Shown here in pieces: positions 1 through 49,362 of a DNA stretch of 49,362 bases (position 1 is its first letter; each line of letters starts with the position of its first letter). Under the pieces are notes generated by a model. It was not told the DNA's origin, did no database searches, and saw only the letters and a program-made list of their open reading frames with translations. Source of the DNA: Raillietiella orientalis (taxonomy: Eukaryota); assembly GCA_036172245.1 (NCBI GenBank), contig JAYWIR010000018.1, forward strand, positions 3,658,001 through 3,707,362, in the 5' to 3' direction. Position numbers and translations under genes: made by a program.

Positions 1-3000
1 GCGGATCACCGATTTCGTCGTTCTAAGCCGTTGCTGATCCGGCGATGGATACCGGTTAGCTCCTCCGTTGTGTCTTCATATAAGTGTCGCCACCCAGCTG
101 CCGACCTGATGAAGTCAGCTGCCTTCCTGATGACACAACATTGCTGTCCAGTATTCTCCAGCACGTCTCGGATCGTGACGATGGCGCGGATGCAACCAAC
201 AGTGGAAATCGTCGCAGCCATCGAAAGTCCTTGTGTCTGGGAGAACCGTCGCAGCACTTCTCGAGCGGTGTCTCCTGGTGACGGGAGAGCTGCTGCTAGC
301 CTCCTCCACAGTTCCTGCAGGGCACCGCAGTCCATAACAAGGTGCGGGAACGACTCTGTCGCTCCGCACCGGGCACAGTAGGGAGAAGCCACTCCACCGG
401 AAACTCGGTGGCGCCGCTCGTTGTAGCGCAATCCCCAGTGCAAGAAAAGCAAAACGTCTTGCTTCCATGCAAGGGGAAACACCGAACCGTCCAAACACCA
501 GATAGGGACTATAAGTTCTTCGGGGGCAACACCAAGAGCTTCTCCCCACCGAAGAAACCCCTTTGGTGTAGCACGAGGAGTGGCGGCATCCGCAAGCTCG
601 CTCGTGGTCCATTCGCCAACTGGTTTTGTTCTTCCTGCAATGGTGCAGGAGAACTCCCACCTTGCCGGCTGGCTACTGTCATCTCGAGCCTCGAGGGCAG
701 ACAGTGCTTCGGCAAGGGGGGTGGCGGCCAAGGAGGAAAGCTTCACCTCGTCCTGCATGACATCTTGGAGTGACCAAGGCTGGAATCGACGCAGGGGGCG
801 AAGATCTTCACGGCTCATTCCTAAGAATGCAGCCCACGAATCAATGGATTCCTGCTTCCAAGCATTATAGTTCATTGGGCGGCAGGTAATCCACGTACTG
901 GCTTCCAATAGGGTGGCGATTTTCCTCAAAGGATAGCCAAATCCCTGTTTCCTGTGGCGCAAGCCAGGCACCAAAGAAAGTAATCCTTCACTGCCTGCAC
1001 ACCTTCTCAGGAGGATGCGCGCAGGCGCACACAGGGGGGAAGTCCATAGCTCGGCACAAAGTGCGAGCATCCAGAACTGCACTTGCAGTCCGATTCTCTC
1101 CATCGTCAGGATGCCAAGCCCAGCATCCCGACGTGGAGCAGTGAGGTCTTTCAGGCGGATCCTGGATCGCGCCGGACCCCAGAGAGCGTTCCTTAGCAGG
1201 CGTTTTGCCCGCTCTTTTACCGCATAGGGGGGTCCAAGACAAAAAAGAGGGGTCAGGGGAGGGGGGCCACGAAGGTGTTCCAAATAGCCGCCCGTTCCGG
1301 CAAGGTGAACTTGCCGTTAATGAACGGGCTGGCGGCCAACTCGGCCTTATGAAGGCAGTCCGACCACGCCTCGGCAGCGCCGAGGTCGCCCAACGGAACG
1401 CCAAGGTACTTGAAGTACCCCGCCGTGGGGATCCCCAGGCGGATCCAGTCGGACTGCCCCTCCAACGACGCACCCACAGGAACGACCACGCTCTTCTCTC
1501 TGTTCACGCTCACGCCCGCTCCCCGACGAATCAGGTCGAAGAAATCTTCGACACTGGACGCCGGGGTGGACATGGGGAGCAGAAGAAGCAGGTCATCTGC
1601 ATAGGCAGACACGGCAGGCGTTCCCGGGAAAGAGCTAGGCAGGTATTCCAGCATCAGCCTGTATGCTCTCAGCACCAACTCAAAGAAGATGCTGAAGAGC
1701 AACGGGCTTAAACTGTCACCCTGCCTGATGCCCCTGCGCACGGGAATACCGTACACGTGGCAGCCGCTAAAACAAATGCAAGTTAGCTCGTGGCGCCAGC
1801 ATGCGCGCAAGTACTTGAGGAGTTGAGCCGGGAGACCCAGGCGTTCCAAGAGCTCCAATAGGAGTGCTTGGTTCACGCAATCGAACGCCTTGTGGAGGTC
1901 GACTGCGACCGCCAAGGCACCCGGCGTACCCTCTTGCCGCTTCTGTCGATACCGTGTGCCTTTAGCAGTGGCATTTGTCACGGATCGACTTTGCTGCGCT
2001 ACGCGCTCCTGCAGCTGCATCCAGGTGCGTGCAAACAGGAGGTTCGCGTGCATGGATCTCCCGGGAACAGCGTAAGTTCTGCTCCGGGCTCACCAGGAAC
2101 GGCGCGATTCTCCCTAGGCGCGCAACCCACATCTTGGGAAACAACTTGACGTCCGAGTTCACCAAAGTGACCAGACGCCAGTTGTTTAAATGGCGTGCGT
2201 CTCCACCTTTCGGAAGGAGACTCACCCTTGCTGAGCGGAAGGAGTTGGGGACATCCCCCGAAAACCCTCATCAGCGACGAGAGGCTATGCACCAGGGGGA
2301 CGAGCTCCCCCACGAAGCACTGATAAAAATCCACAGGCAGCCCATCCTCGCCTGGCGCTTTTCGTCTCTTGAGCTTCGCTATTGCGGAGGAAATTTCCTC
2401 CTCCGTGAAGGACTCGTCGAGACGTGAGCGTTCCTCTTCGCTAACTACGGCAGCAACCTGGGAAAGCAGTATCTCCGAAAAGATAATTTCCGTTGGTGCT
2501 TCCGCGTATAGCGAGGAGTAATAACTTTTTATTATGCGGCGAATACCGGCTGGTGCCGAGCATTCCAGGCCTTTTTAATCGAGCAGGGAAGATGCTCCTG
2601 ACTGCCAGACCTGGCGCTCGGCTCTCGCCCTGTATTCCGCAAGCCGGCTGACATCCGCGCGTCTCGAAAAGGTGCGCGCCTGCAGGAAAGTCCTGCTGTT
2701 GGCGACCCCTTCTCCAAAGCCTAGCGGAAGCCGGTGCAAGGGAAACCGTTCACAGAACTCGCGGACTGAACTCTTCAAATAATCCCAGTCCGCAAGTTCG
2801 CGGATGACGAAGGTCCGGAGGTGCTGACGGAGATGATCCGCCGCCTCCGGATGGCTAAGCCAATCCGCCGGCATCCTCCAGTTCTTTAACGGAGACCCCT
2901 TGCCTGGAAGAAGGAGCTCAAACTCCAACCTGTGATGGTCAGAGAGAGCAAACGACAATCTTCCTCTTCTTCCCACACGAGGGTACAGGTTTTTATCAAG

Positions 3001-3393
3001 AAAGATGTGATCCGGCGACCTTTCCATCTCAGGTACGCCGACCATCAAGTTGAAAGCGCGTACTGACGCGCACATCTCGATGGCCGACGTGCGCTCCCTC
3101 GGGCAGTTCCAATCGTCAGAGAGCAGGTGGACGTTGAAGTCCTCTGCGACGAGGTGCGCCACTTGGGAGCCGAAGTTATTGAGCCAGTGGCATTTCACTT
3201 CCTCGAAGAGCGCAATTCTTTCTTCGAAGTAGCGAGAGCCACTCAGAGCGTAGATGTTTGTTACGACAAGATCGATGGACTCGGACCACTTGACAACAAG
3301 TTGGCCCACGCGTCCGTCGTCGTCAAAACGAACACTACGTACCGCTTCCGCCATTTTTCCTCTTACGAGGAACGCGACGCCGCACGTGTATGG
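1..3393 (-). mobile_element. LINE B1, 3' part (ORF2); 3' UTR lies left of the window
   Basis: Minus-strand ORF pieces give APE (TCGVAFLVRG..VTNIYA..LSDH), RT (VDLHKAFD, GIRQGDSLSPLLF, YADD) and C-terminal CARC..HLVMDC. The closest relative in the window is the ORF2 starting at 40106. Confidence 0.9.
6..3393 (-). pseudogene. B1 ORF2 (APE-RT-CCHC), N-terminus deleted, several frameshifts
   Basis: Split across ORFs 2575-3582, 1962-2225, 1253-2053 and 6-1283; natural stop at 6-8. Confidence 0.9.
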
Positions 3394-3948
3394 GTCCCGG
3401 TATCGGGAGACAGCTTCATACAGGTAGGGAAGAAAGGAAAGAGGAGGATGCTCGTCAAGGAGCAAGAAACCCCTCTTATCCTGGAAGGTGAAGAGCGAGA
3501 AGGCGAGAAGATGGAGGTAGCGCAAAAAGGCGCGGAAGAACAAATAGCCGAAGCCACTCCGGTGTCGCAGGAAACCCTGCAATCTACTGAAGAGTTGGCA
3601 TCACTGGCTAATGAAGTCCTAGAGGTGCAGAGCGGTAACCAGCAAGAGAAAATCTTGCAGAAGATCTGCAATGCACAGCAGAAGGTCAACCAGGTTGTGG
3701 AGGTCACCCAGCGCGAAAAGCTAGAGGAACAGCTTCTCGACGTAAAGGCGAACTTCTGCGCCAAGGTCGAGATAGAGACGCTATCTCGAAAACTGATCGC
3801 GCGGGCCGAACACTCGACGGAGGAGGCGGAAGTAACCGACCTCACCGGGACAGAGAGTGACGCCGGCAGCGAGAAGCCCGCTGCTTCTTCATTGTCTGGA
3901 AGAGCACGCTCTCTCAGACAGAAGAAGCTCAGGAAGGCCAAGAAATAG
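3394..3948 (+). pseudogene. A1 ORF1 C-terminal fragment
   Basis: Matches the C-terminus of A ORF1 (...ARSLRQKKLRKAKK*) at 8962-9588 and in ORF 19050-20981. Confidence 0.9.
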
Positions 3949-3961
3949 GTCTTCCCCTTTT

Positions 3962-6900
3962 ATGGCCTCTTCCCTATCGACCGCCAGGAGGCTGAACATC
4001 GCCTCCTGGAATGTAAACGGTATGGTCGACCAGGGAAAAAGAAAAAGGATTGTGCGGACCATCGCACAACAAGACATAGTATGCCTGCAGGAGACCCACA
4101 AGATGGGTCTCGAGATTAGTCAGCAAATGGAACGGCGATTCAACGGGCAGATTTTCGTCAGCGAGGGAGAACGGAACACGCAGGGTGTGGCGGTCCTAAT
4201 CAAGAACAACTTGGCCCCCACTATTCTGGAAGTGTTCTGTCCCCAACCCGGACGAATCATCGGCGTGCGACTGGCCTGGTCCGCTACTGTTCACCTCATC
4301 CTGGTGAACGTGTACGGGCTGCACAGGCTAAAACATCGTTGTGCGGAGGCGCTGCATGCAGCACTCCGTGAAAAGGTTGCTTCCAAGGACGTCGTGATTG
4401 TTGCTGGCGATCTCAACATATTGAATGAGATCACTCACCCCGAAGACGCCAGAGGAAGAACGGCGTATCGGCGGTTATCCGACGAGTTCGGACTGGTGTG
4501 GCGAACTGAAAGTCACAAGCTGATCGATCACCTCCTGCACAGCACTGAACTTGGAAATCGCATCCAGGGTTTTCAAGACATTATGACCACGGTGTCCGAC
4601 CACCCCCTGGTGCGGTTTTCCCTAAGAACGGAGAATCCTCGGCGGAGGCAAGGCACCAGGGCGGCGCTCATCAGCATGCCCGCCTGGTTCGAAACCCATC
4701 CCGGACATCAGGCTGTCCTGGAGACGATTCTGAAGGCAACAACAATCCGAAGAGTCGCCGACTGGGACAGGCTGAAACACAGGATACACCTGTTTGCAAA
4801 CATGCAGTTCGGAGATAGGCGATTGAGGCAGGAGGCGTACCGGGAGCTGAAAATCAGAGATCGCTCACTCTCAAAGTACTTCGATCAGTACGAGAGTCGG
4901 TACGTCTTCAAGAACATAAGAGGGGAAGTCGGCGTGCTGGAGAAGAGAAATCAGGCAGCAGATATCTTCTGCATCCAGTACGATGGTCAAAAGCGACAGT
5001 CGTCTGAGGACATCGTGGATGCCTTTCAAAGGCATTACACGAAACACTTTAGGCGACAACATCTCTGTCGCTCTAGTCAACAGGCCTTTCTGAGCTACCT
5101 GGAGAAGAGGACCGACGATCGCCAGCGGAACAGACTGGAGGAGGAATTCTCCGAAGACGAGGTGAAGACTGCGTTTGGTCAACTACGCAAGGACGTGGCA
5201 GCGGGCCCTGACAGCGTACCCATCACTCACTATCACCGGTACCTGCATGCCTACCTGCGTTTGTTCCACCAGTTGACCCTCTGCATCCGTGAAGAAGGAA
5301 GACTTCCACAGTCCTTCTACGAGGGTCGGATGAGATTGATGCCAAAAAGAGGCGACCTCACGCAGGTCGCTCAATGGAGGCCAATCTCGATCCTGAACTC
5401 GGATGCCAAGTGGTTGGCGAAGATCTGGTCCAACCGCTTAGGCAAGGTCATATCGAGGCTCATATCTCCGGTACAAACGTGTGCAGTCCCTGGACGTTAC
5501 ATGTCCGACAATGTCAAGTGTGCCCAGGCCACTGTCGGACTCAGCCGATACGTCGGCGAGAATCTGGCGATGGTTACTGACATGGAGAAGGCTTTCGACT
5601 CCATCGACCATGGGATGCTGCTGAAGGTTCTGGAGAAGCTAGGCCTCCGGAACACTTCAGCAACTTCGTGAGGGTGGTACTCCAGAACCAGTACTGCCGT
5701 ATCAAGATCAACGGCCAGGAGACAGCAGCAATCAAGATGGAACGGGGAGTCCGGCAGGGCGACTCGCTAAGTCCGATGCTGTTCGTCATCTATATGGAGG
5801 CGTTGTCGTCCTTTATCGAGAAGAGCGGACGACTAAGCGGGATTACCATCGATAGCCAGCGTCTTACCCATCTGGCATACGCCGATGATCTACTCTTCTT
5901 CATCAAGGGAGAGAAAAATCAGCGTGCGTTTCTGGATGTGGTGGACCTGATGGAACAGGGCTTGGGCTTAAAAATCAATTCCCAGAAGAGCCAGCTTTTG
6001 CCCGTCGGAATCCTGGATCTCTCCACTCTAACGGGTAGTGGATTCCGTACGGTGGACACGGCCAAGTACCTGGGAGTCTACATCGGCGACGGCTCTGCGT
6101 CGAAGCTGCTGTGGAAGGAAATCCTGGGGAAAACGGCCAAGGAAGCAGCCAAGTACACCCGAACGGACCTTGGAATGAAGCGAAAGGCCAACATATGGAA
6201 CGGAGTACTCCTTCCAAAAGTGCTCTTCGGGGCGGCCTTCGCGAGGATGAACAAGGAAACCACGAGGGAGTTCGACAAGCTGCAGAGAAAAACACTGTGG
6301 GGCCACTATCGCCCAAGAGTCCGACTAAAACCCCTGTGTCGTCCCAGGGAAGAAGGCGGTTCCGGGATGAAGTCGCTTGAACACTCCATGGAAATCATGG
6401 ATGCGCGACACATCCTGGACATTGCCACTCACTGGGATGACTGGCCGTATGCGGCGCACAGGGCCTACGCGTTGTTGTTGAACAACTCGAAAGGCCTGAT
6501 GACTGCGCTGCTAGGCCGAGCAGGCGTATGGAAAAAAATCGACCCAACCTGGACGAGGAAGCAACGGCTGGTGCGAAAGCACAAAATCAAGATCGTGCCG
6601 AGAAGTAGGGAACTCTGGCAGGACGAGTTTATCCTGGTGATCCCTTGGATGCTTCCTGTCCCGCCGGATACGAGTAGCTGGATCCACCAGCGGTCCAGAG
6701 TTACCCTTCAACGAATCCAGGAGTGGAAACGTGGAGGGTACCTACATCACACTCGTATACTTAGGTATATAGAGATGATGTTAGGAAGGTTTACCCACAT
6801 GACTCGCGAAGTGTAGTTCAACCACAACGACTTTGCGTGGTTCAGGGTAACCAAAACAAACCTACGAAGACTAATTCAAGAAGAAGACAGTGATATCAGT

Positions 6901-7476
6901 GCCCTCCAGGAAGCCGCCGATCGCCACGGGAGTGACCGGGTCAACCTGTTAGCGATTGGCACGACGCTCTGGAGGAGTGACCTTCCGCCGGGCACCCAGG
7001 ATGACCTCCTGATGTTTTATCATGGAGGAATCCAGAGTGGGTTCGGATTGCAGCACTACACCGGAAGAAGGGAAGATCGAGACTTCACAGCATGTGGAGA
7101 CATCGACACGAGACTTCACGTTTAGACGTGTCCCTTATTGCTGCATGACTGGCTGATCCTGAAAAGGATCATCGGACTCACCACCAGGTCCGTAATGGAG
7201 ATCCTCGCCGGGATGTTTCAGGGGGATGGTAATGTTCCCTGTTACAATCTTATGGTGAGGACGACCATCGCCCTCTTCATCACCGCCACACTTGTGCGGT
7301 GGTGGAAAATGAGGAAAGCCAGAAGAGCCGCACCACCGATGGAGATCCTACAAGGGCTCCTGAAGAGGGAAATCGGCATTAGAAACTGTGGGAAAATCCA
7401 AGCCTGGACGTACCGATTCATCCTGAAGAGGATAGAAGACGACGCCCGGGACCAAACAGTAGGAAACCCACCATGA
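3962..7476 (+). pseudogene. A1 ORF2 (APE-RT-CCHC), disrupted
   Basis: ASWNVNG, CLQET, NVYG, GDLN, SDH (APE); DMEKAFD, GVRQGDSLSP, YADD (RT); CTAC..H..C. Frameshift near 5650; stops at 6814-6816 and near 7122. Confidence 0.92.
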
Positions 7477-7581
7477 GTGCAGAACTTGTGATAACCCAAG
7501 GACTTCATAGTGGTAAAAAAAAAGTGCTAATGGTATGGATGAGATTGTAGTGTGAATGTTTTTATAGAAAAATTTTAGAAA

Positions 7582-7619
7582 AATAAATTTACCCCACCCC
7601 TCGTGGGACTTGGGGAAAA
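7582..7619 (+). terminator. A 3' terminus: AATAAA + GC hairpin + A4
   Basis: aataaa tttacccca cccctcgtggg act tggggaaaa; the same terminus occurs at 12307-12344, 15383-15420(-) and 46832-46868(-). Confidence 0.65.
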
Positions 7620-7631
7620 CTGCCGAGTCGG
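7620..7631 (+). repeat. 12-bp target-site spacer between tandem A1 and A2 (ctgccgagtcgg)
   Basis: Exact reverse complement of the TSD ccgactcggcag that flanks A3 (15371-15382 and 21037-21048). Confidence 0.9.
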
Positions 7632-7800
7632 TGAACTTGCTTCGCGGCTCAAAGTATTGTGCGCTTGACAACTTAACCAGTTAATTGTGCTCGTGTGTGC
7701 CCGGAGAGGGGAAGTTTCCAGACGAAACTACAAAAGAAGCGCCGAGGAGATCGCGGCGGAAGACCTGCAGTGGTCCCGTGCAGCAAGACCAGCTGCCAGG

Positions 7801-9588
7801 ATGCAGGCACCTGGAGGAGGAGTGAAGAGACCGTCGTCCCCCATGGAAGCCATGGAGGTAACGTGCGGCAACGGCGAGGCGGTGGCAGGCATGCCGAGGA
7901 TCGCGCCCGCGGCGGGCTTTGCTGCGCCGGCGGCGGCGATGCCAAGGGTCGTGCCCGCGGCGACGAGGGCGGAGGTCGTGCCCGCGGCGGCGACGCCGAG
8001 GATCGTGCCCGCGGCGGGGAAGGTCGCGCCTGCGGCGGCGATGCCGAGGGTGCCGCCCGCGGCGGCAACGGTGGCGACGTCGAGGGTTGCGCTCGCGGCG
8101 GCGGCGTCCCAGGCAGGACCCGCGGGCGTCCACGCGGTTCAGGGCGAGACGCCATCTTGTTCGGCTGCGGCGGCGCAGCCCTTTTCCTATGCGTCGGTGG
8201 CGGCTGGACAAGCGAGTGTCCACCCACCAAGAAAATTCGGGAAGCCGCTATGCGGTAAAGTCCAAAAGGTGGATCGGCCGATCGTGGAGTTAGGGCCGAA
8301 TGTGAAGCCCATCATTTTCAAGACTGGGCTGATCAAGTTCAATAATATCAGGGAGGTGTATCTGTCCCTCGATAAGACGGATATCAATTTTGATCGCATA
8401 CAGGCGATCATACCAGCAAACAACGGGTTCACAGTCTTCACAGACTGTGAAAATATTAGAGAGCGATTGATCCAGAAGGGGATCAATATACAAGGGAGGA
8501 TGGTTTGTGGTATTGGCGAAATGCCATACACAACCGTCTTTCTGAACGGCATCTCCATCCTCACACCGCAACTAACGGTGTGGAACTTTTTGGAGCAGTA
8601 CGGGGAAGTTCTAGACTTTGAATTCCAGAACTTCTCAGGAAATATATTTTATGGCGAAATGATCGCCAAAATGAAGTTGAAAGAGGCAGCTGTGATCCCT
8701 GGATTAGCCGTTCTTGACGAACAATCCCAGGGAGTGAACGTGCGTTACCGGCAACAACCGATATTCTGCACCGGGTGCAAGTAGTTCGGCAACAGGGCAG
8801 GCGCATGCCCAACGTGTCGTTGTTTCCGCTGCGGCAAAGTAGGACATCAAGTCCGAAACTGCCCGCAGCCGGAGGTTTGCTCCTCCTGCAAGAAACACGA
8901 GCACGCCAAATGGAGCTGTCCGGAGTTTGCAAACTGCAGAAGGATTCGAGGTCTCTCTCCCGTGAGAGAGAGAAACACCAAGGAGGCGGAACAGCCTCAG
9001 AAGGCAGGAAGGCCGAAGAAGGAGAAAGAAGCCGTCCCGGTATCGGAAGACGGCTTCATACAGGTAGGGAAGAAAGGAAAGAGGAGGATGCTCGTCAAGG
9101 AGCAAGAAACCCCTCTTATCCTACAAGGTGAAGAGCAAGAAGGCGAGAAGATGAAGGTAGCGCAGGAAGGCGCGGAAGAAGAAATAGCCGAAGCCACTCC
9201 GGTGTCGCAGGAGGCCCTGCAATCTACGGAGGAGTTGGCACCACTGGCTAATGAAGTTCTAGAGGTGCAGAGCGGTCCCCAGCAAGAGAAAATCTTGCAG
9301 AAGATCTGCAATGCACAGGAGAAGGTCAACCAGGTTGTGAAGGTCACCGAGCGCGAGAAGCTAGAGGGACAGCTTCTCGACATGAAGGCGCACTTCTGCG
9401 CCAAGGTCCAGATAAAAACGCTATCTCGAAAATTGATCGCGCGGGCCGAACACTCGCCGGAGGAGCCGGAAGTGACCGACCTCACCGGAAAGGAGAGTGA
9501 CTCCGGCAGCAAGAAGCCCGCTGCATCTTCGTCGTCTGGAAGAGCACGCTCTCTCAGACAGAAGAAGCTCAGGAAGGCCAAGAAATAG
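7801..9588 (+). pseudogene. A2 ORF1 (Ala/Pro repeats, three CCHC knuckles, acidic coiled-coil-like tail), in-frame stop at 8782-8784
   Basis: ORFs 7687-8784 and 8962-9588 share a frame; CAG>TAG relative to intact A3 ORF1. Confidence 0.88.
7885..8125 (+). repeat. GC-rich coding minisatellite (about 27-bp units, xPAAAxxxV) in A ORF1
   Basis: Repeated gtgcccgcggcg.. units; the equivalent at about 20510-20780(-) has one extra VVPAATTAE unit. Confidence 0.8.
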
Positions 9589-9601
9589 GTCTTCCCCTTT
9601 T

Positions 9602-12200
9602 ATGGCCTCTTCCCTATCGAACACCAAGAGGCTGAACATCGCCTCCTGGAATGTAGACGGTGCTGTCGACCAGGGAAAAAGAAAAAGGATTCTGCGGAAC
9701 ATCGGACAACAAGACATAGAGTTCCTGCAGGAGACCCCAAAGATGGGTCTCGAGATTAGTCAGCAAATTGAACGGCGATTCAACAGGCAGATGTTCGTCA
9801 GCGAGGGAGAACGGAACACGCAGGGTGTGGCGGTACTAATCAAGAACCACTTGGCCCCCACTATTCTGGAAGTGTTGTGTCACCAACCCGGACGAATCAT
9901 CGGCGTGCGACTGGCCTGGTCCGCTACTGTTCACCTCATCCTGGTGAACGTATACGGGCCTCACAGGCTGAAACATCGTTGTGCGGAGGCGCTGCATGCA
10001 GCACTCCGTGAAGAGGTCGCCTCCAAGGACGTCGTGATTGCTGCTGGCGATCTCAACATATTGGATGAGATCACTCATTCCCAAGACGCCAGAGGAAGGA
10101 CGGCGTATCGGCGGCTATCCGACGAGTTCGGACTGGTGTGGCGAACAGCAAGTCACAAGCCGATCGATCACGTCCTCCACAGCACCGAACTAGGGAATCG
10201 CATCCAGGGTTTTCGAGACACATTGACCACTCTGTCCGATCACCCGTTGGTGCGGTTTTCCTTAAGAACGGAGAATCCTCGGAGGAGGCAAGGCACCAAT
10301 GCGGCGCTCTTCAGCATGCCCGCCTGGTTCGAAACCCATCCCGGACATCAGGAGGTCCTGGAGGCGATTCTGAAGGCAACAACAAACCGAAAAGTCGCCG
10401 ACTGGGACAGCCTGAAACACAGGATACACCTGTTTGGAAACATGCAGTTCGGGGACACGAGCTTGAGGCAGGAGGCGTACCGGGAGCTGAACATCCAAGA
10501 TCGCTCACTCTCAAAGTACTTCGATCAGTACGAAAGTCGGTACGTCTTTTAAAGAACATAAAAGGGGAAGTCGGCGTGCTGGATAAGAGAAATCTGGCAA
10601 CAGATATCTTCTGCATCCAGTACGACGGTCAAGTGCGACAGTCGTCCGAAGATATCGTGGATGCCTTTCACATGCATTACACGAATCCCTTCAGGCGACA
10701 ACATGTCTTTTGCTTTAGTCAACAAGCCTTTCTGAGCTATCTCGAGAAGAGGACCGACGACCTCCAGCGGAACAGACTAAACGAGGAATTCTCCGAAGAC
10801 GAGGTGAAGACTGCTTTTGGACAACTGCGTAAGGATGTGGCGGCGGGCCCTGACAGTGTACCTATCACGCACTATCGGCGGTACCTGCATGCCTACGTGC
10901 GTTTGTTTTACCAGTTGACCCTCTGCATCCGCGAAGAAGGAAGACTTCCACAGTCCTTCTACGAGAGTCGGATAAAATTGTTGCCAAAAGGAGGCGACTC
11001 ATGCAGGTTGCTCAATTGAGGCCAATCTCGATCCTGAACTCGGATGCCAAGTGGTTGGCGAAGATCTGGTCCAACCGCTTCGGCAAGTTCATGTCGAGGC
11101 TCATCTCTCCGGTCCAAACGTGTGCAGTCCCTGGACGTCACATGTCGGACAATGTCAAGTGTGCCCAGGCCACCGTCGGACTCAGCCGATACGTCTGCGA
11201 GAACCTGGCGCTGGTGTTCACTGACATGGAGAAGGCTTTCGACTCCATCGACCATGGGTTGCTGCTGAAGGTTCTGGAGAAGCTAGGCCTTCCGGAAGAC
11301 TTCAGCAACTTCGTGAGGGTAGTACTCCAGAACCAGTACTGCCGAATCAAAATCAACGGCCAGGAGACGGCAGCAATTCGGATGGAACTGGGAGTCCGGC
11401 AGGGCGATTCGCTAAGTCCGATGCTGTTCGTCATCTACATGGAGGCGTTGTCGTCCTTCATCGAGAAGAGCGGACGACTGCAAGGCATAACAATCGATGG
11501 CCAGCCTCTTATCCATCTGGCATACGCTGATGATCTACTCTTCTTTATCATGGGAGAGAGAAATCAACGAGCGTTTCTGGATGTGGTAGACCTGATTGAT
11601 CAAGGCCTGGGTCTAAAGATCAACGCCCAGAAAAGCCAGCTCTTGCCCGTTGGAATCCTCGATCTCTCCGCTCTAGCGAAGAGAGGATTCCGAACGGTGG
11701 ACAAGGCCAAGTACCTGGGTGTCTACATTGGCGACGTCTCCGCGTCGAAGCTATTGTGGACCGAGATCCTAGGGAAAACGGCCAAGGAAGCAGCCAAGTA
11801 CACCCGAACGGACCTTGGAATGAAGCGAAAGGCCAACATATGGAACGGAGTACTCCTTTCAAAAGTGGTCTTCGGGGCGGCCTTCGCGAGGATGAACAAG
11901 GACACCACGAGATAGTTCGAAAAGCTGCAACGCAAAACACTGTGGGGCCACTACCGCCCAAGAGTACGTCTCAAACCCCTGTGTCGTCCCAGGGAAGAAG
12001 GCGGTTCCGGGATAAAGTCGCTTGAACACTCCATGGAAATCATGGATACGCGACACTTCCTGGACATGGCCACTCCCTGTTATCTGTTCATAGGGAAATC
12101 GGCATTAGGAATTGCGGAAAAATCCAAGCCTGGACGTTCCGATTCATCCTGAAGAGGATAGAGGACGAGCCCGGGACCAAACATCTGGAAACCCACCATT
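9602..12200 (+). pseudogene. A2 ORF2, frameshifts, stop and about 935-bp deletion near 12076
   Basis: ORFs 9497-10552, 10138-11019 and 11001-11915; sequence jumps from the A1 equivalent of 6430 to 7366. Confidence 0.9.
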
Positions 12201-12344
12201 ATTGCAGAACTTGTGAGAACCCAAGGACTTCATAGTGGTAAAAAAAAAGTTCTAATGGTATGGATGAGATTGTAGTGTGAATGTTTTTATAGAAAAATTT
12301 TAGAAAAATAAATTTACCCCACCCCTCGTGGGACTTGGGGAAAA

Positions 12345-19036: not shown

Positions 19037-19049
19037 AAAAGGGGAAGAC

Positions 19050-35867: not shown

Positions 35868-35952
35868 AACACGTGTTTTTCCTTCACTCCTCAAAGAGTA
35901 GTAGGAAAGCGCTTTCTTGTGTGTGGTGTTTTGTGTACATCGTCGGTGTCCA

Positions 35953-37638: not shown

Positions 37639-38105
37639 CACCTGGGCTCGCCAGTCGACGTCGGATTCGCGCCGTCTGTTGGAATGTCAACGGGCTGCGC
37701 GACGACGGTAACAGGCGAGATACAGCCGACACCCTGCGGGAGATCGACCTGGCCCTGTTCCAGGAGATCCACGTGATCACCGCGGCAGACGTCCAGGAGA
37801 TCGAGACGATCGCGGGGGGTCGACTGTATTGGCAATGCGGCATCCGAAACACCCGCGGGGTCGCGTTCTTCGTGAAGCCGGCCATCGACGCGGCCGTGAA
37901 GGGCGTGCGCTTCGATGACGACTGTCGGGTCGGTCAGCTGACTCTCGGCTGGTCCGACTCGATCGATCTGATCGTCACGAATGTGTACGCCCCAACCGGT
38001 CAAAAGGGATACAGCAACCGTACCAGGCTGCTTGAATCCCTGAAGCGCGACTGGCTGGCGAACACGAGCGTGTGGAAGGCTCACCTGATAGCGGGAGATT
38101 TGAAT
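37638..38105 (+). pseudogene. E2 ORF2 APE N-terminus (ACA at the ATG position), truncated at GDLN
   Basis: (T)PGLASRRRIRAVCWNVNG..FQEIH..TNVYAP..AHLIAGDLN. Confidence 0.85.
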
Positions 38106-38184
38106 CGAGTGCGGACGTGATTTTCTTCGCTCTCGTCTCCGTGCTTTCATCCGCTTCATCTTGGCGTCGTACATTTTGACGACG

Positions 38185-40106
38185 ATGTCGACGCAATTCG
38201 AAGATACTGAAGTTGGAGGAACAGCATCCGGATCTGCAATCGCGGAACCGACGGCTGCCTCCACTTCGTCTTGCTCGCCAGTGGAGAGGAGTTTTGCTGA
38301 CGTTGCTGGCACAGCAGCCGTCAAAAGGAAACCACTCTACGAGTCGGAGTTGCGGCATACGTAGCCCAAGGCTATAGACCTGTTCTCCGGTATAAGGTGA
38401 GTGGTTTTCTTTCAGCGCGCGACGGGAATCAGTTCAACGATGAACTGACCCGTGTTGGCGTGCGGCAGGACGACCTTCTCGCCATTATGTCCGTAAAAGA
38501 CATGAGCTATTTCAAGGTGCGTTGCAAAGACGCTGCACTTGTGCAACGCTTGCTGCGCACCCCGTTGTCGATCCGTGTCCAGAAGGTCTTCCCGGCCGCC
38601 ATGGACGACTCATTTGTGGCGGAGATTTTCGACATCGAGTCGGAAATCTCCGATATTGATATTCGGAATGCGTTGGCGAAATTCGCCACGGTCCATGCGC
38701 TGTGAAGGGTGCGTAGCAACCTCAAGGACTTCCCGTTCATACACAACGGAGTCGCTGGAGTCCGGCTTACAATGCCGGACCGCCGTCTGCTGCCCACCAA
38801 ACTACAGGTGAAAGACACGGTCGTTCACCTGTGGTTGGTGGGCAAAGTAAGAACGTGCGAGCAATGCGGGAAGGAGGGGCATTGTTTGGATAAATGCCCC
38901 TCTGGAAAATGCCGTTATTGCAAACTATCCGGGCACCAATTGAAAAATTGCCCGGATCTTTTGCGAAAAAAGGCAGCCGCGGAGCTTCATTTTAAAAAAC
39001 AAAGCGCGGATAAAAAGAAAAAATCTGCGAAAAACCTGGAGACCCCACGGCAGAAATTCCGAAAAAACGCGAGGCGGAATGTCGCCCCAAAGCAGCAGGA
39101 AACCTCGCACGCGAAGCCCTGCGTGCCCCTTCTCGCGGCAGGGGAGCCGGAAAAGAAAGGGTGCGGGGAATCCGGGGCAATGGTAAGTCCCCCTAGGCGC
39201 AATAGCTGTCCTTCGCAAGCACGCCCGGCTCTTTCGGAGTTCGAGCAACCGGCGGGGACGTCAATGGACAACGGCGGTAAGGACACTTCCAGTACCGTCA
39301 GATTTATTCCTTCACCTCCTGCAGTGGCTGAGAAGCACAAATCGGGTAAGAAGGGTTGTGCCGTGTCGACTTCGAAAGTCGGCAAAAAAAAATCCGCGTC
39401 GCGATCCAACACCGCGAAAGCGGGGAAAAATCTCACGCCGTCGCAATCGGAGAGGAAGCTCTCGACTGGCGCGGATGCCATGCCAACGAAGCGATTAAAA
39501 TCCCTTCCGAAGGCAGCGTCCATGACAAGCGTGTCGAAGCCATCCAAAGTGCTCCCGTCCAAAGACGCGGATGGCTTCAAAGATGGCAATGGAGCACAAT
39601 CTCCATTTACGGCGCCACGCGAAGTGAGGAACCGTAATGAAGTAAAGAAGACTTCAGCAAAGGTCCCTCGTGCAACTGAGCGTGAGCACGCTGAAAACGC
39701 GCGCGCCGGGAAAGCAGCCGTCACCAAAAGCGATGCTCTGGAGAAGGAAAAAGGCAACAGGACAGCTGTCAATCCAGCAGAACCTGTCACTACTTCGCGG
39801 AAGGCCCAAAACCGATCGAACATGCGCCGGTCAGACTCCGAAATGGATGCCGTTCCGATCACCGAGACGAGGACAACTCGTTCGAAAGCGTGTGCGCGCC
39901 GATCAAAAGTAGGCAGCCAGGCAACTGTAGCCGCGAAGCCACGCGAAGTCTCCACGAAACCCGACGGGATTAAGCCTGGCGTGGAGGCATTACATGCATG
40001 CAGCACGACAGAGGACGGTGGCGACCGTCCCCTCCAGCCAATCGTGCTGCTCGCCGTCTGCTCGCCGGATAAAGCGAGCAAAAAGCTGCCACCTTCCCAG
40101 CAGTAA
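38185..40106 (+). pseudogene. B2 ORF1 (frameshift near 38340, stop at 38703)
   Basis: CEQCGKEGHCLDKC and CRYCKLSGHQLKNC knuckles; homologous to B1 and C ORF1. Confidence 0.87.
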
Positions 40107-41824
40107 TGCGGGGAATCGCGTCTTCTCGTCGTCTGTCCGTAACGTGTTGGAACGTGAACGGACTGCAGAACGACGAGAAGAGGCGATTAGTAGCCAACGC
40201 CCTGCGCCCCTTCGAGCTCGCGCTCCTGCAGGAGATTCACGTAATCTCCGACGAGCAGGCAGCCGAAATCGAGGAGCGCGCAGGCGGAACGCTACATTGG
40301 CGGTGCGGCGACGCACACACGTGCTGTGTCGCGTTCCTCGTAAGAGGAAAAATGGCGGAAGCGGTGCGTAGTGTTCGTTTCGATGACGACGGACGGATAG
40401 GCCAGCTTGTCATCAAGTGGTCCGAGTCCATCGATCTCGTCGTAACGAACGTCTACGCGCCGAGTGGTTCTTGCTACCTCGAAGAAAGAGAAGCTTTCTT
40501 TGGTGTGGTGCAGAGCAACTGGCTCAACAACTCCGGCTTCCAAGTGGCGCGCCTCGTCGCTGGGGACTTCAACGTCCGCCTGCTCTCCGACGATTGGAGC
40601 CGCCCGAGGGAGCGCGCGCTGCCCATCGAGATGTGCGCGTCCGTGCACGCCGCCAACTTGATGGTCAGCGAACTTGGATTGGAAAGATCGCTCGCTCACG
40701 TTTTCCTCGATAAAAACCTGCATTCGCGTGTGGGTAGGAGAGGAAGATTTTTGACTAGGCTTTCTGACCACCACAGGTTGGAGTTTGAGATCCTTCCGCC
40801 AGGGAGGGGGCCTCCGTTGCCAAATTGGAGGATGAAGGCAGATTGGCTTAGCAACCGGAGGCTGCGGAGCATCTATGTGGATACCTCCGAGGCTTTGCCA
40901 TTCAAGAACTTGCGGACTGGGACGATCTCAAAAGATCTGTCCGCGAGTTCTGCTGCCAATTTCTTTTGCACCGGCTTCCACGCGGTTTCGGAGAGGGCGT
41001 GGCCAACAGTAGAGACTTTCTGCAGGCCCGAACATTTTCGAGACGCGCGGATGTCGGGCGTCTCGCAGAGTACATGGCGAGGGCCGAGCGCTAGGTCTAG
41101 CAGTCCGGAGCAGCATGCCTGTTGGACTACAAGGGCCAGGAATGTTCGGCCCCAGCCGAAGTACGCCGCGTTGTGAGACGCTACTACTCCTCGCTGTACG
41201 CGGAATCCTCGACGGAGGATATTCTCTCTGAGATACTCCTGTCTCAGGATGCTCGTGTTGTCGGCGAGGAGGAACGCGAACGTCTAAACGAGCCCTTCAC
41301 GGCGGATGAATTTTCGTCCGCCATCGCTGGGCTGAAGAGACGAAAGGCGCCAGGCGAGGATGGGCTCCTTGCAGTGTTTTATCAGTGCTTTGGAGTGGAG
41401 CCTATTCCCTTGATGCTGAAACTCGCGACGCTGATGAGTGAATCCGGGAATGTCCCGGATTCCTTCCGCTCAGCGAAGGTGCGTCTCCTGCCGAAAAGCG
41501 GAGACTTGCGTCAACTTAACCACTGGCGTCCGATCACCTTGATGAACTGGGACGTCAAGTTGTTTTCCAAGCTGTGGGTCGCGCGGTTGGGAAGTATCGC
41601 GGAATCTGTGGTGAGCTCGGAACAAACCTACGCGGTTCCGGGACGATGCATGGAGGCGAACATCCTTTTCGCGCGTACATCGATGCAGCTGCAGGAAGTT
41701 GTGGCGCAGCAAAGCCAGACTGCTGCAAAAGTCACTTCCGCAAGCAAGAAGAACAGGCGCCGACGGCAGGAGGGAACTCCAGGTGCCTTGGCGGTCGCCG
41801 TCGATCTCCCCAAGGCGTTCGATT
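40106..41824 (+). pseudogene. B2 ORF2 APE + RT N-terminal part, frameshift and stops
   Basis: ORFs 40106-41176 and 41122-41862, ending AVDLPKAFD at the junction. Confidence 0.9.
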
Positions 41825-44800
41825 TTCACCCGGAATTCGCCGGGGCGTTTATTGTAAAATAAACATTTACAAAGACGTGCGGTGGCTGGACCATTGCTCC
41901 AGCCACGCACGAAGAAACACAGAGCCTGCCGGGTCACCGGTTCGTAGACCGGGACCGTCCATCACGGCAGCAGGTGGAAGGGGGAAAAACAAAAAAAACA
42001 AAACAAAAAAGAAAAGAAAAGTTGGGAAAGTGAGAGAAGGGATCACAGTTGCTGGTGGGGCCGTTGCATTCTTTGCAGGATGCCGGCAAGCTCCTTCTGT
42101 ATTCCTGGATCCAGGTGGGGCCATCGGGACTCCCTCCTCAGGAACTGGGAGGACGGCTGGATGGCACCCTGGTCGCGTTGTCCTCCCGTAGCCTTGCTCC
42201 AAGCGGTGACGATCCCGCGTGGGCAGCACAAAGCTGCTAACGAGGCCGCTGGCCGAAGGGCGTCAGCAACGAAGAGGGCTTTCAGTGCGTCCCTGGGGTT
42301 ATCGCAGGGTATTCCGATGGCCGCGGCAAAGCGAAACCAAAGGGGCCGAAGGGCAACACAATCCACTAGCAGGTGGGGGAGGGAATCCCGTTCCCCATAC
42401 CTGACGCAATTGGGGTCCACCGCTCCCCAAATCCAGTAATGTCGGCGGGCGTTGCAGGGGAGTCCCCAGTGCTGCAACAGGAGAGCCGACTCCTGCCATT
42501 TTAAGGGGAGGGCGGAAGTGTTCATGAGCACCGGGGGCCACTTCAGATGTTCAATGGGAACATCGAGCAGCGCGCCCCAGCGCAGAAGTCCATTTGGAGG
42601 CGTACTCGAGGTCGCAGCGTCTGTTAACTGGCCCGTCTTCCACTCTCCTATCTTCTTCTCCTTTCCGGAGATTGTTACTGTAACCACCCACTTCGCCGCA
42701 ACATCGCTGTCCAGATCTTCCATCAGGGAGGGCAGCGCAGCAGCGAGGGGGGTGCTTCTTGCCCACGCTCTCTTCTTTGGATCCTCCAGGATCTCGCGGA
42801 GCGTGCAACTTCTGTAACCCCCAAACAGGAACCTTCGTTCCTGTTGAGAGCGCTGCATGCCTTACTGTCCCCACGTTCGAACGGTTTACTGCAACCAGGC
42901 ACTACCGTTCAACGGGCGACAGGTGAGCAATCCGGGGTTTTTCCGATACAGCGCAGCCCATCTCCGTAGCTGGAGTCCTCATCGGTTGACGCGGCGACGG
43001 AGTGCAAGAAACGACGTCAGTCCCGTCTTGCCGTTGGCTTGCTGGAGGAGACGTGCAGGGACGCACCAACAGGTGCACCACAACTCTGGAACGAGTGCCG
43101 ACAAGCGGAACTGGAGCTGAAGCTCCAGCCGCTCCAGCGTCAGGATTCCCAGACCACCATCCCGACGAGGAGCGCACAAGTCCTTCAAGCGGTCTCGGGC
43201 CCTACCGTTGCCCCAAAGGGCGACACGGAGGAGGTCCTTTGTATACTTTTTAATTCTCTCTGTGGGGGGGCGAACAAAAAGCAGGAAACGGAGGAGAGGA
43301 GCCGCGAACGTGTTCCAAACCGTGGCCCGTTCAGGCAGGAAGAACCTGCCGCCTCGGAACGGGCTGATCGCCGTCTCTACTTTTTGGAGGCAGCCGGACC
43401 ACGCTTCCGCATGGGAGTAGTCCCCCAACGGCACCCCAAGGTACTTGGAGTAAATCACCGTGGGGATCCCCAAACGGACATAGTCCTGCTGCCCTGCCCA
43501 CGCCGCATCAACTGGCATCACGGACGACTTCGCCCTGTTCACCGTAAGACCGGTTCCCCGATGCAGCAGGTCGAAGAACTCCTCGGCCGCCGCAGCCGGG
43601 GTGGACATAGGAAGCAGCAGCAGAAGGTCGTCCGCGTATGCTGAAACGGCCGGCGTACCGGCACAGTCGTGCGGCAGGTGCGCCAGATTTCCCCTGTACG
43701 CTCTCAGTAACCACTCAAAGTAGGTACTGAAGAGCAAGGGGCTCAGGCTGTCTCCCTGCCGGATCCCACGCCGCACCGGCACGCCGTGCACGGTATGCCC
43801 GCTGAAAGTAACATTGATGAGCGCGTCGGGCCAGCAGGAGCGCAGATAGGTTACTAATAAGGCCGGGAAGCCAAAGCGTTCCAGAAGCTCCAGAAGGAGA
43901 TTCTGGTCGACGCAATCGAATGCTTTCCGCAAGTCAATTGCGACCGAAAGGGCTCCCTCCCCCACCCGACCATCCAAGCCCTTGCCGGCGCACGCACCGG
44001 AATTCCGGTTGCGCACCAAGCTTCTTTCTTGTCGGAGATCTACCCAGGTGCAAGCGTGGAACAGGTTCGCCTCCATGCTTCGCCCGGGAACAGCATATGT
44101 CTGTTCCGGGCTGACGAAGATGTTGGCAACCCGTCCCAGACGCTCTGCCTAAACCTTTGCTAGCAACTTGGCGTCCGGATTCACTAGTGTGATGGGACGC
44201 CAGTTGTTTATGCTCCTCAGATCTCCTCCCGTAGGGAGGAGCCGCACCTTTGCCGAACGAAACGAGACGGGAACGTCGCATGTTTCGCGTATCAGCAAGG
44301 TGAGTTGCTGTACCAGGTGGGTAAGCTCTGCCGCGAAGGTTTGATAAAACTCCGCGGGCAGGCCGGCCTCCCCTGGAGCCTTTCGCCTCTTGAGCTTTCC
44401 GATGGCCGAGAGTATCTCGTCCATCGTGAAAGGCTCGTCGAGGGTATTTCTCTGCTCCTCCCCGATCGCTGGAGCGCCTTCCGGAAGCAGGAGTCGTGAG
44501 ACATTCCTCTCCGGAGGTGCCCTGGCATACTGGGAGGAGTAGTAACTCCGCAGCAGGCCGCGGATTTTGGCAGGTGCCGAGTGCTCCTGGCCCTGATCGT
44601 CCAGCAAGCTGGCCGATCCGGACTGCCAGGCTTGCCTCTCGGCTCCCGCTTTGTATTCCGCCAGCCTGCGGATGTCGGGGGTCCTGGCGTAACGACGGGC
44701 CTGCAGGTAGGCTCGTTCGTTACGGACCCCGGTCCCAATAACCGTAGGTAGGCGCTGGAGAGGGAACTGGTCGCAGAACTCCTGTACCGACCGCTTGAAG

Positions 44801-45470
44801 CGGTCACAATCCTGGAGTGTCCGCAGTCTGAAGCTCCGTATGAACGTGCGGAGATGTTCCGCCGCGTCCAAGAACTACAGCCAGTCCCCTGGGAGACGCC
44901 ACGCTGACGAGGGGGGCCCCTGTCGCGCGGATGGATCTCGAGGACTAGCAAGCGATGGTCGGACAGCTCGCACGGTAACTTGCCGCGCCTGCCCACGCTA
45001 GGGCACCCGTGCTCGTCAAGAAACACGTGGTCAATGCTTTCTTCCATCCCCGGTGCATTGGCCAACAAATTACAGGTGTGCACCGCCATGCACACCTCGT
45101 TGACCAGGTCACGCTCGGGATTCTGCCCATCTGGTTTCAGGCGAACGTTCAAATCGCCTGCAACCAGATGGGCATTCCGCATGCCTGCTTCGGTCAGCCA
45201 GTATCGCCGGAGGGCAAGGAAAAACTCTTTCCTCGCCCTCCTGTTCATCAGGTCCTTGCCGCTCGGTGCGTACACGTTCGTGACAATCAGATCGATCGAG
45301 TCGGACCACCTGAGAGTCAGCTGGCCGACACGACCGTTATCGTCGAACCGCACGCCCCGAGCCGCGGCCTCGACGGCTGGCCGAAGCAGGTAGGCGACAC
45401 CGCAACTTTTCGCTCTCTCACACCTGTACCATAGCCGCCCTCCGGAGATCGGTTCGATCTCCTGCGCTCG
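41825..45470 (-). mobile_element. LINE D2 copy b (D2b), ORF2 and 3' UTR, cut at its 5' side by C2
   Basis: 3' terminus aataaacgccccggcgaattccgggtgaaaa at 41823-41853(-); ORF2 and UTR are related to D1. Confidence 0.9.
42043..45470 (-). pseudogene. D2b ORF2 (APE-RT-CCHC), frameshifts and stops
   Basis: ORFs 44292-45482, 44149-44871, 42979-44076 and 42043-42858. Confidence 0.9.
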
Positions 45471-46830: not shown

Positions 46831-46831
46831 G

Positions 46832-49362
46832 TTTCCCCAAGTCCCACGAGGGGTGGGGTAAATTTATTTTTCTAAAATTTTTCTATAAAAACATTCACAC
46901 TACAATCTCATCCATACCATTAGCACTTTTTTTTACCACTATGAAGTCCTTGGGTTCTCACAAGTTCTGCACTCATGGTGGGTTTCCTACTGTTTGGTCC
47001 CGGGCGTCGTCTTCTATCCTCTTCAGGATGAATCGGTACGTCCAGGCTTGGATTTTCCCACAGTTTCTAATGCCGATTTCCCTCTTCAGGAGCCCTTGTA
47101 GGATCTCCATCGGTGGTGCGGCTCTTCTGGCTTTCCTCATTTTCCACCACCGCACAAGTATGGCGGTGATGAAGAGGGCGATGGTCGTCCTCACCATGGG
47201 ATTGTAACAGGGAACATTACCATCCCCCTGAAACATCCCGGCGAGGATCTCCATTACGGATCTGTTCGTAAGTCCGATGATCCTTTTCAGGATCAGCCAG
47301 TCATGCAGCAATGTGGGACACGTCAAGACGTGAAGTCTCGTGTCGATGTCTCCACATGCTGCGCAGTCTCGGTCTTCCCGTCTTCCTGTGAAGTGCTGCA
47401 ATCGGGACCCACTCTGGATTCCTCCGTGATAAAACATCAGGAGGTCATCCTGGGTGCCCGGCGGAAGGTCACTCCTCCAGAGCGTCGTGCCGATCGCTAA
47501 CAGGTTGAACCGTTCACTCCCGTAGCGTTCGGTGGCTTCCTGGAGGGCACTGGTGTCACGGTCGTTTTCTTGGATAAGCCTTCGGAGGTTTGTTCTGGTT
47601 ACCCTCGACCATGCGAAGTCGTTGTGGTTGAACCACACTTCGCGGGTCCTGTGGGTAAACCTTCCTAACATCATCTCTGTATACCGAAGTATACGTGTTT
47701 GATGTAGGTAGCCTCCTCGCCTCCACTCCTGGATTTGCAGTAGGGTAACTCTGGACCGCTGGTAGATCCAGCTTCTCGTGTCCGGCGGGACAGGAAGCAA
47801 CCAAGGGATCACCAGGATGGACTCGTCCTGCCAGAGTTCCCTGCTTCGCGGCACGATCTTGATTTGGTGCTTCCGCACCAGCCGTTGCTTCCTCCTCCAG
47901 GTCGGGTCGATTGTTATCCATTCCCCTACTTTGCCTAGCAGCGCAGTCATCAGGCCTTTCGAGTTGTTAAGCAACAACGCGTAGGCCCTGTGCGCCGCAT
48001 ACGGCCAGTCATCCCAGTAAGTGGCAATGTCCAGGATGTGTCGCGTATCCATGATTTCCATGGAATGTGCAAGCGACTTCATCCCGGAACCGCCTTCTTC
48101 CCTGGGACGACACAGGGGTTTCAGTCTTACTCTTGGGCGATAGTGGCCCCAGAGTGTTTTTCTTTGCAGCTTGTCGAACTCCCTAGTAGTGTCCTTGTTC
48201 ATCCTAGCGGAGACCGCCCCGAAGAGCACTTTTGGAAAAAGTACTCCGTTCCATATATTGGCCTTTCGCTTCATTCCAAGGTCCGTTCGGGTGTACTTGG
48301 CTGCTTCCTTGGCCGTTTTCCCTAGGATCTCGGTCCACAATAGCTTCGACGAGGAGACGTCGCCAATGTAGACACCCAGGTACATGGCCTTGTCCACCGT
48401 TCGGAATCCTCTCCCCGCTAGAGTGGAGAGATCGAAGATTTCAACGGGCAAAAGCTGGCTTTTCTGGGCGTTGATCTTTAGACCCAGGCCTTGATCCATC
48501 AGGTCTACCACATCCAGAAACGCTCGTTGATTTCTCTCTCTTGATAAAGAAGAGTAGATCATCAGCGTATGCCAGATGGGTAAGACGCTGGCCATCGATT
48601 ATTATGCCTTGCAGTCGTCCGCTCTTCTCGATAGAGGACGACAACGCCTCCATGTAGATGACGAACATCATCGGACTTTGCGAATCGCCCTGCCGGACTC
48701 CCCGTTCCATCCGGATTGCTGCCGTCTCCTGGCCGTTGATTTCGATTCGGCAGTACTGGTTTTGGAGTACCGCCCTCACGAAGTTGCTGAAGTGTTCCGG
48801 AAGGCCTAGCTTCTCCTGAAACTTCAGCAGCATCCCATGGTCGATGGAGTCGAAGGCCTTCTACATGTCAGTGAACACCAGCGCCAGGTTCTCGCCGACG
48901 TATCGGCTGAGTCCGACGGTGGCCTAAGCACACTTGACATTGTCCGACATGTAACGTCCAGGGATTGCACACGTTTGGACCGGAGAGATGAGCCTCAACA
49001 TGACCTTGCCTAAGCGGTTGGACCAGATCTTCGCCAACCACTTGGCATCCGAGTTCAGGATCGAGATTGGCCTCCATTGAGCGACCTGCGTGAGGTCGCC
49101 TCCTTTTGGCAACAATCTCATCCGACTCTCGTAGAAGGACTGTGGAAGTCTTCCTTCTTCTCGGATGCAGAGGGTCAACTGGTGGAACAAACGCAGGTAG
49201 GCATGCAAGTACTGCTGATAGTGAGTGATGGGTACGCTGTCAGGGCCCGCTGCCACGTCCTTGCGTAGTTGACCAAACGCAGTCTTTACCTTGTCTTCGG
49301 AGAATTCCTCCTCCAGTCTGTTCCGCTGGAGGTCGTCGGTCCTCTTCTCGAGATAGCTCAAG
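46832..49362 (-). mobile_element. LINE A copy 4 (A4), 3' part; continues beyond the window
   Basis: A 3' terminus plus ORF2 pieces 46973-48595, 48441-48833 and 48924-49361. Confidence 0.92.
46973..49362 (-). pseudogene. A4 ORF2 RT-CCHC part, disrupted
   Basis: YADD and CAAC..H..C motifs; stops near 48868 and 48924, frameshift near 48540. Confidence 0.9.

Follow-up and report, generated by a model that had tools for sequence, protein, structure and literature searches.

Probable insertion of LINE lineages at defined sites inside one another in a 49-kb LINE nest

We analysed a stretch of 49,362 bp (contig JAYWIR010000018.1 of assembly GCA_036172245.1, positions 3,658,001 to 3,707,362; hereafter the window, with positions counted from its first base), which is a nest of long interspersed nuclear elements (LINEs) of the L1 superfamily. 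We consider it fairly probable that the LINE lineages of this nest insert at defined sequences inside other LINE lineages. Independent copies were found at the same target base for family A, in the hosts B(-) and C, and for family C, in D2', D2 and a D1-type flank, and the two D-type copies D1 and D' adjoin an identical 17-mer. Orientation is constant within each family, and each has its own length of target duplication (15 nt for A, 14–15 nt for C and 17 nt for the D1-type, with one or two cases each).

LINE sequence makes up the entire window, with a GC content of 54–62%. It holds 56 stop-to-stop open reading frames (ORFs) of at least 200 amino acids (aa), of which 46 were scanned against Pfam and 10 overlapping ones left out; 19 of the 46 gave matches, in every case to RVT_1, Exo_endo_phos or zf-CCHC. 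As in ORF2 of L1-superfamily LINEs, Exo_endo_phos and RVT_1 lie within a single ORF in D1, C1 and A1. ORF1, which is homologous across families and carries zf-CCHC in A2, A3, C1, C2 and Z, lies upstream of ORF2, again as in this superfamily. The best solved-structure match of D1 ORF2 was human L1 ORF2p (E 7.6e-49), with R2 at ~1e-12 to 1e-14. Copies were assigned by self-BLAST (34 rows of high-scoring segment pairs) and by tblastn with the window's own ORFs, which resolved two groups: family A, with four copies 91–95% alike, and a related group of B', B(-), B(+), C1/C2, D1/D'/D2/D2', Y and Z, whose members share 66–78% DNA identity. ORF2 of family A is ~28–30% identical to that of the other group.

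Visible 5' ends are full length in 9 of 10 cases. The B/C/D/Y/Z group has a common 5' terminus, CGAG(T)GCGGACGTG (ACAGTGCACACGTG in C), and its 3' end reads AATAAACGCCCCGGCG..CCGGGTG followed by a few A's. When 3' ends were compared, no poly(A) tail was present on the window copies: the B/C/D/Y group ends in a conserved AATAAACG-hairpin and then 2–4 A's, and family A in ...GGGGAAAACT. A poly(A) tail is typical of L1 but not strictly defining, and 3' ends without one fit the 'stringent' 3'-end type.

That family A targets other LINEs in a sequence-specific manner we hold with high confidence. Its four 3' ends, at 7619, 12346, 15382 and 46830, are identical through their terminal ...GGGGAAAACT, after which host ORF1 follows in antisense orientation. 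The hosts B(-) and C are ~68% identical in ORF1 and 56% identical around the A site. Comparison of their 90-nt flanks at the A junction gave 50 matches out of 90 at offset 0, against at most 45% and mostly ~25% at 24 other offsets, and this peak puts A at a single homologous position in both hosts, as two independent insertions. By our own arithmetic, the odds of such a same-base coincidence are ~1 in 10,000 (random insertion into a ~5.7-kb host in either orientation). Recurrence of A at a homologous base of ORF1, as claimed in a preliminary description of this DNA, was thereby confirmed. A3 is flanked by a 15-nt duplication (15368–15382 and 21034–21048) that is identical at 14 of 15 positions, the difference being a CpG transition, and with A3 removed in silico the C ORF1 frame continues for ~215 more codons. 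The 15-mer CTGCCGAGTCGGTGA between A1 and A2 recurs unchanged at the A3 5' end and matches the C-host target at 14 of 15 positions.

Sequence-specific targeting by family C is probable. C elements end at 14022/14023, 25634/25635 and 45470/45471. In two copies the C 5' end adjoins a D2-type apurinic-type endonuclease (APE) region at the same base (14022/14023 and 45470/45471); these left flanks of C1 and C2 are 90.3% identical, and D2' is 73% identical to D1. The 3' end of C1 adjoins, from 25635, a D1-type flank that is 97% identical to D1 and matches the intact D1 site throughout its first 14 bases (14/14). Left and right flanks of C overlap by 14–15 nt in host coordinates, resembling a target duplication. 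C1 and C2 share 95.8% identity, and both are cut at the same ORF1 base by family A. The single recurrent site in the D-type APE had been recognised in the preliminary description, which placed it after QEIH; it lies ~10 codons further on, immediately after ...DQAREI, with D2-type flanks in two copies and a D1-type flank in the third. As a separate observation, the D-type APE carries an inverted repeat, GAGATC-N5-GATCTC, beside the position entered by C (30905–30945 in D1; 13990–14022; 45440–45470).

For the D1-type, sequence-specific targeting is likewise probable. The 5' end of D1 lies at 32831, and the 17-nt host copy at 32832–32848 adjoins the LQDWD codons of Y, whose reading frame it extends (TLRN-LQDWD). 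On the minus strand D1 and D' stand head to tail; D' is 97% and 94% identical to D1, and the 17-mer between them, TGGAGATTCCGGAGCGT, is identical to the Y host sequence at 32832–32848, directly upstream of D1. Insertion of D1 at LQDWD of an element called E had been described before, and it holds for two D1-type units with an identical 17-nt host copy. The tandem spacers, set apart in that description, are themselves target copies of 15 nt (A) and 17 nt (D). Another possible origin of the D1–D' tandem is unequal exchange involving the two 17-mers; RNA template-jumping as its sole origin was ruled out, the spacer being host Y sequence. E equals Y (32832–35851), but the region of the D1 ORF1 (31094–32755) belongs to D1, and a separate element E from that region was rejected on self-BLAST and tblastn. 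D1 has an open ORF1 of 554 aa and an open ORF2 of 1173 aa that overlaps it by 94 nt in another frame. With its full 5' terminus, open ORFs and 3' hairpin, it may on sequence grounds be a recently active copy. The ORF1 of D' differs from that of D1 by the lack of an in-frame stretch of 243 bp, or 81 codons (31441–31683 in D1 versus 26146/26147).

Two further junction types are sampled more thinly. B-type 5' ends lie in sense orientation at ~13689, beside GDFN in D2', and at 38105/38106, beside GDLN in Z; both copies begin with the full, same 5' terminus and are only ~68% identical in ORF1. This is suggestive of B-type targeting of the GDxN region of APE: the two junctions fall in the motif region proposed earlier and are near-coincident rather than identical. 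D2, which is 78% identical to D1, has its 3' end at 41822–41824, inside the KAFD codons of the B(+) reverse transcriptase (RT). The junction positions given before for D1 and D2 were correct, as were junction coordinates in general, to within a few bases. Taken as a whole, a multi-family web is plausible and thinly sampled, and we think it somewhat probable: recurrence of A, C and the D1-type speaks for it, and B is near-coincident and D2 a single case. On comparing the sites, a consensus common to all of them was rejected, in agreement with the preliminary description. All 11 non-tandem junctions do lie in an ORF, as that description stressed, but this carries no weight, being the chance expectation because ~92% of D1 is ORF (5087 of 5536 bp). 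It had also proposed that conserved codons are targets that are hard to escape. GDxN and KAFD are catalytic motifs, and AREI and LQDWD are conserved within the group, but the A target is a low-complexity, poorly conserved ORF1 linker (9/16 identity between hosts), with an even more diverged unoccupied site in B(+), so that the homing-endonuclease-like idea fails for A and is at best partial overall.

A nest of this kind could also grow by regional targeting without sequence specificity, if LINEs are attracted to a single chromatin domain, such as a centromere-type cluster, or persist nowhere else, as has been proposed for Zepp and ZeppL; its repeated junctions would then arise by segmental duplication, unequal crossing-over and gene conversion. 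The window is LINE throughout, unequal exchange between the flanking 15–17-nt repeats could make tandems, and the mismatched flanks of C1 show that recombination or conversion took place. Zepp clusters, too, are described as nested self-insertions, one per chromosome (PMC8226300, PMC3446292). Self-BLAST gave a continuous 94.3% match over 4.2 kb (13691–17919 versus 45139–49360) that spans two junctions. Within this block, however, divergence is heterogeneous: 9.7% in the D segment (32/331), 4.2% in C (56/1346) and 5.8% in A (146/2530), with Fisher tests giving p=1.7e-4 for D vs C, p=0.010 for D vs A and p=0.033 for C vs A. Informative sites among the four A copies favoured A2 with A3 against A1 with A4 (10 sites), with 3 sites for A1 with A3 against A2 with A4. 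Only 1 supported A1 with A2 against A3 with A4, so the sister of A3 is not A4. Had the block arisen by one duplication, its segments should be equally diverged and A3 should pair with A4; neither was seen, and duplication is therefore disfavoured. Descent of all recurrences from one ancestral nested block had been named beforehand as an outcome that would overturn the idea of targeting, and these two results speak against it. Judged from the sequence comparisons, the 94% block is probably not one duplication, and independence of the insertions is favoured, not proven. Nor does regional targeting account well for the shared position of A in B(-) and C, hosts too diverged for duplicates, the A copies themselves being 91–95% alike. 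The B(-) flank beside A is 56% identical to C, below the ~68% of ORF1, so there is no converted tract, and A1 is 5'-truncated, hence no simple unequal-exchange copy. On balance we regard regional targeting as unlikely.

An occupied copy might instead convert its empty homologues, by ectopic recombination or through host-carrying complementary DNA, and need no sequence-specific nuclease. The identity of C1 and C2 (95.8%) suffices for conversion, the C1 flanks are chimeric, and the 15-mer at the A2 and A3 5' ends reads T against C in the 3' copy of both C hosts. Such spread would nonetheless have had to act between B(-) and C, whose 56% identity around the site is too low for homologous recombination, and B(-) was already an occupied host without flanking homology to other occupied copies. 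The clean 15-nt duplication around A3 is of the kind left by staggered endonuclease cuts, and the D2'/D2 flanks are 9.7% diverged against 4.2% for the C inserts, the reverse of a co-converted tract. We therefore find homology-driven spread very unlikely, and return to insertion at defined sequences.

Several observations weigh against that interpretation. The sample is one 49-kb window with 2–4 copies per family, and gene conversion among nested repeats may obscure what the divergence tests show. The stretch duplicated at the A target is identical at only 9 of 16 positions between B(-) and C. The 15-mer between A1 and A2 has no match to the B(-) flank at the A2 3' end, and the 5' copies at A2 and A3 have T where both C hosts have C; transcripts of A may therefore carry the 15-mer at their 5' end. 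To judge from these sequences, it may be part of the A element instead of a target duplication, and the A1–A2 dimer may be a single event, for which RNA template-jumping is a possible origin. The flank overlap of C1 differs at 5 of 15 bases, the left side being D2-type and the right side D1-type. Possible reasons for C1 flanks from two different D hosts are recombination between same-site C insertions, conversion of D' by D1 or an assembly switch, and under two of these three, C would have inserted there independently once more. The B-type junctions are 8–13 nt apart, the D2 site differs from the D1/D' site and was seen once, and the Y 3' end is separated from the full Z 5' end by a spacer, CTCTAAGG, of only 8 nt. 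Finally, contigs from sequencing runs X1–X3 gave no usable census of junctions.

These contigs nevertheless bear on the possibility that the junctions or tandems are artefacts of mis-joining similar repeats. Run X1 (Logan contigs) contains 29% of sampled words of 27301–37300, and two runs of the same study almost none. Contigs of X1–X3, which are short, were aligned to 12001–32000 at 85% likeness. One crosses the C/A junction, one starts exactly at 14022, and one joins 14025 to 25656, corresponding to a D copy without C; loose contig ends among those listed (for example, 28737 and 30575) resemble subfamily divergence, not junctions. The region is highly repetitive, a switch inside C or A3 could give C1 its flanks of two D subtypes, and only 54 of the 545 X1 contigs aligned to the stretch are ≥99% alike, too few to confirm the whole path independently. 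Mis-joins are expected in homologous sequence, however, and not at the precise termini of unrelated families with target duplications, and an X1 contig spans the C/A junction at 15382; we consider an assembly artefact highly improbable. Summed contig depth in X1 was 43–93 for family A (15336–20004) versus 7–41 for C and D, and 0.3–1.3 for B(-), a hint that family A is the most abundant, although contig depth is a poor measure of copy number. A metagenome scan with the A 3' end gave 0 matches. A scan with the 16-mer AATAAACGCCCCGGCG gave 118 loci, none of them window-like by blastn or tblastn, and these are an unrelated repeat or chance matches.

We propose that the lineages would insert by target-primed reverse transcription at defined sequences within other LINEs, the APE of each lineage recognising its own target. 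As the junctions show, family A enters one base of the ORF1 linker of B/C-type elements in antisense, with a 15-nt target duplication; C enters one APE site of D-type elements in antisense, with a 14–15-nt overlap; and D1-type insertions lie in antisense immediately ahead of LQDWD in Y, where 17 nt are duplicated. B-type elements may be aimed at the GDxN region of APE, in sense orientation, and D2 at the KAFD codons of RT. The tandems A1–A2 and D1–D', with exactly one target copy between units, would reflect re-use of the regenerated upstream target. The 15- and 17-mers might also be carried at the RNA 5' end, aiding precise 5' joints. Each insertion would break its host element; that the invader inactivates this element, and that the site is neutral for the organism, we infer as the preliminary description did. 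More tentatively, and with some doubt, the links (A into ORF1 of B/C, C and B into the endonuclease gene of D/Z, and D into ORF2 of Y/B) might form a self-contained LINE 'food chain', in which each endonuclease evolved to cut a rival lineage and the cluster grows only into itself.

Site-specific LINEs land safely in host multicopy genes, telomeres, microsatellites or a DNA transposon. The R1 and R2 LINEs of ribosomal DNA show single-base specificity, constant junctions and precise full-length 5' ends, which target-derived sequence at the start of the RNA helps to form. The window shares with them a single-base target, constant junctions, full-length 5' ends and re-use of a multicopy target, but R1 and R2 use a host gene array, R2 has a restriction-like nuclease, and neither forms a LINE-into-LINE hierarchy. 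Xenopus Tx1L, an L1 LINE of the Tx1 clade, inserts in the DNA transposon Tx1D, and is thus also an APE-type LINE with a single site inside another transposable element. It is, however, a single LINE family with a DNA-transposon target, whereas in the window LINE coding regions serve as targets and the links form a chain (A into B/C, C into D, B into D/Z, D into Y/B). In Cryptococcus, Cnl1, like other telomeric LINEs that nest in themselves, builds arrays by insertion into earlier copies. Such growth into older copies is seen here too, but Cnl1 is a single telomeric family without defined coding-site targets in other families. Among APE clades, Tx1 and R1 are known for target specificity, with 'transposons' among the targets (PMC4640811).

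Zepp of Chlorella and Coccomyxa and the Zepp-like (ZeppL) elements of green algae form dense nested L1-type clusters with head-to-tail arrays, Zepp having a GC content of 61% (PMC3446292, PMC8226300), with at most two ZeppL families per species (PMC8226300, PMC3446292, PMC11005252). Dense nested L1-type copies, head-to-tail arrays, entry of new copies into residents and high GC are common to these clusters and the window. Theirs is described as self-targeting by one family with arrays of 5'-truncated 3' ends, whereas in the window six or more diverged lineages occupy family-specific bases and all but one of the 10 visible 5' ends are full length, and a dominance of 5'-truncated 3' ends of one family was not found in it. 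We take the likeness to algal Zepp clusters as no more than an analogy, by which the nest is possibly a Zepp-like centromere-type cluster. In large protein collections no protein was more than 31% identical; the top matches were unnamed or 22–31% identical, with no named Tx1, Zepp or Repbase reference among them, and we therefore place the elements in no clade. The best named algal match, Coccomyxa L1 ORF2, was weak (28% identity over 42% of the query).

A literature search, with subscription papers and supplements outside its scope, found no description of a multi-family, site-specific LINE-into-LINE network. In the accessible text of PMC8226300, PMC3446292, PMC11005252 and a bioRxiv preprint, no explanation was found for the confinement of Zepp-type piles. 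This confinement would have a simple, sequence-based account if related LINE lineages each recognised a fixed sequence in another. Such lineages would also show that closely related elements can diversify rapidly in APE target specificity, and their endonucleases and targets would be a ready-made natural set with which LINE target choice could be studied or re-used. If true, the 'food chain' would explain through sequence how the centromere-like LINE islands of green algae come to number one per chromosome, and transposons of several families would be parasites of other transposons.

Table 1. Elements and spacers along the 49,362-bp window
Feature	Positions	Strand	Description
B'	1..3393	-	B/C-type LINE; ORF2 from APE residue ~104 to C-terminus; adjoins truncated A1 5' end
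A1	3394..7619	+	5'-truncated family A copy; 92% identity to A3 19604-15368
15-nt CTGCCGAGTCGGTGA	7620..7634	+	between A1 3' end and A2 5' end
A2	7635..12346	+	5' end complete; ~920 bp lost internally; B(-) ORF1 follows its 3' end
B(-)	12347..13689	-	B/C-type; 5' untranslated region (UTR) and decayed ORF1; 5' terminus CGAGTCGGACGTG; A2 cuts at ORF1 linker
D2'	13690..14022	-	D2-type APE fragment, residues ~84-194; between B(-) and C1 5' ends
C1 left part	14023..15382	+	5' UTR and ORF1 to codon 417; ends in target copy 15368-15382
A3	15383..21033	-	full-length family A, 5651 bp; antisense in C1 ORF1
C1 right part	21034..25634	+	target copy 21034-21048, remaining ORF1, ORF2, 3' UTR with hairpin
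D'	25635..27278	-	D1-type 5' part: 5' terminus, ORF1, ORF2 to residue 87; C1 3' end cuts it
17-nt TGGAGATTCCGGAGCGT (D sense)	27279..27295	-	between D1 3' end and D' 5' end
D1	27296..32831	-	full-length, 5536 bp; open ORF1 and ORF2 (APE and RT)
Y (E of the preliminary description)	32832..35851	+	ORF2 from just before LQDWD to 3' hairpin; hosts D1/D' tandem
8-nt spacer CTCTAAGG	35852..35859	+	between Y 3' end and Z 5' end
Z	35860..38105	+	5' terminus, ORF1, APE up to GDLN; B(+) 5' end cuts it
B(+)	38106..41822	+	5' terminus CGAGTGCGGACGTG, ORF1, APE, RT up to KAFD; D2 3' end cuts it
D2	41823..45470	-	D-type from APE residue ~84 to 3' hairpin; C2 5' end cuts it
C2	45471..46830	+	second C copy; A4 cuts at same ORF1 base as in C1
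A4	46831..49362	-	family A copy, continues past window end

The assignment of B' (Table 1) comes from a tblastn match to residues 104–1172 of D1 ORF2 and a nucleotide identity of 77.6% to B(+) at 40310–41824. The internal loss in A2 takes in the C-terminus of ORF2 and the 3' UTR and leaves a filler of 12–14 nt at 12079–12092; either an internal deletion or the joining of two A copies may account for it. The N-terminal part of the family A ORF1 contains GC-rich tandem repeats of 27/48 nt (7891–8070, plus strand; 20573–20739, minus strand), with 3–5 units, 73–88% matches and a repeated peptide stretch, and the number of units differs between A2 and A3. At the 3' end of the related group, AATAAACG is followed by a 5-bp hairpin (CCCGG/CCGGG) and a short A-rich tail at 25595–25634, 27296–27335 (minus strand), 41823–41862 (minus strand) and 35812–35851. 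All 4 copies compared have the same hairpin, without covariation, and it may be what the RT of a 'stringent' LINE recognises.

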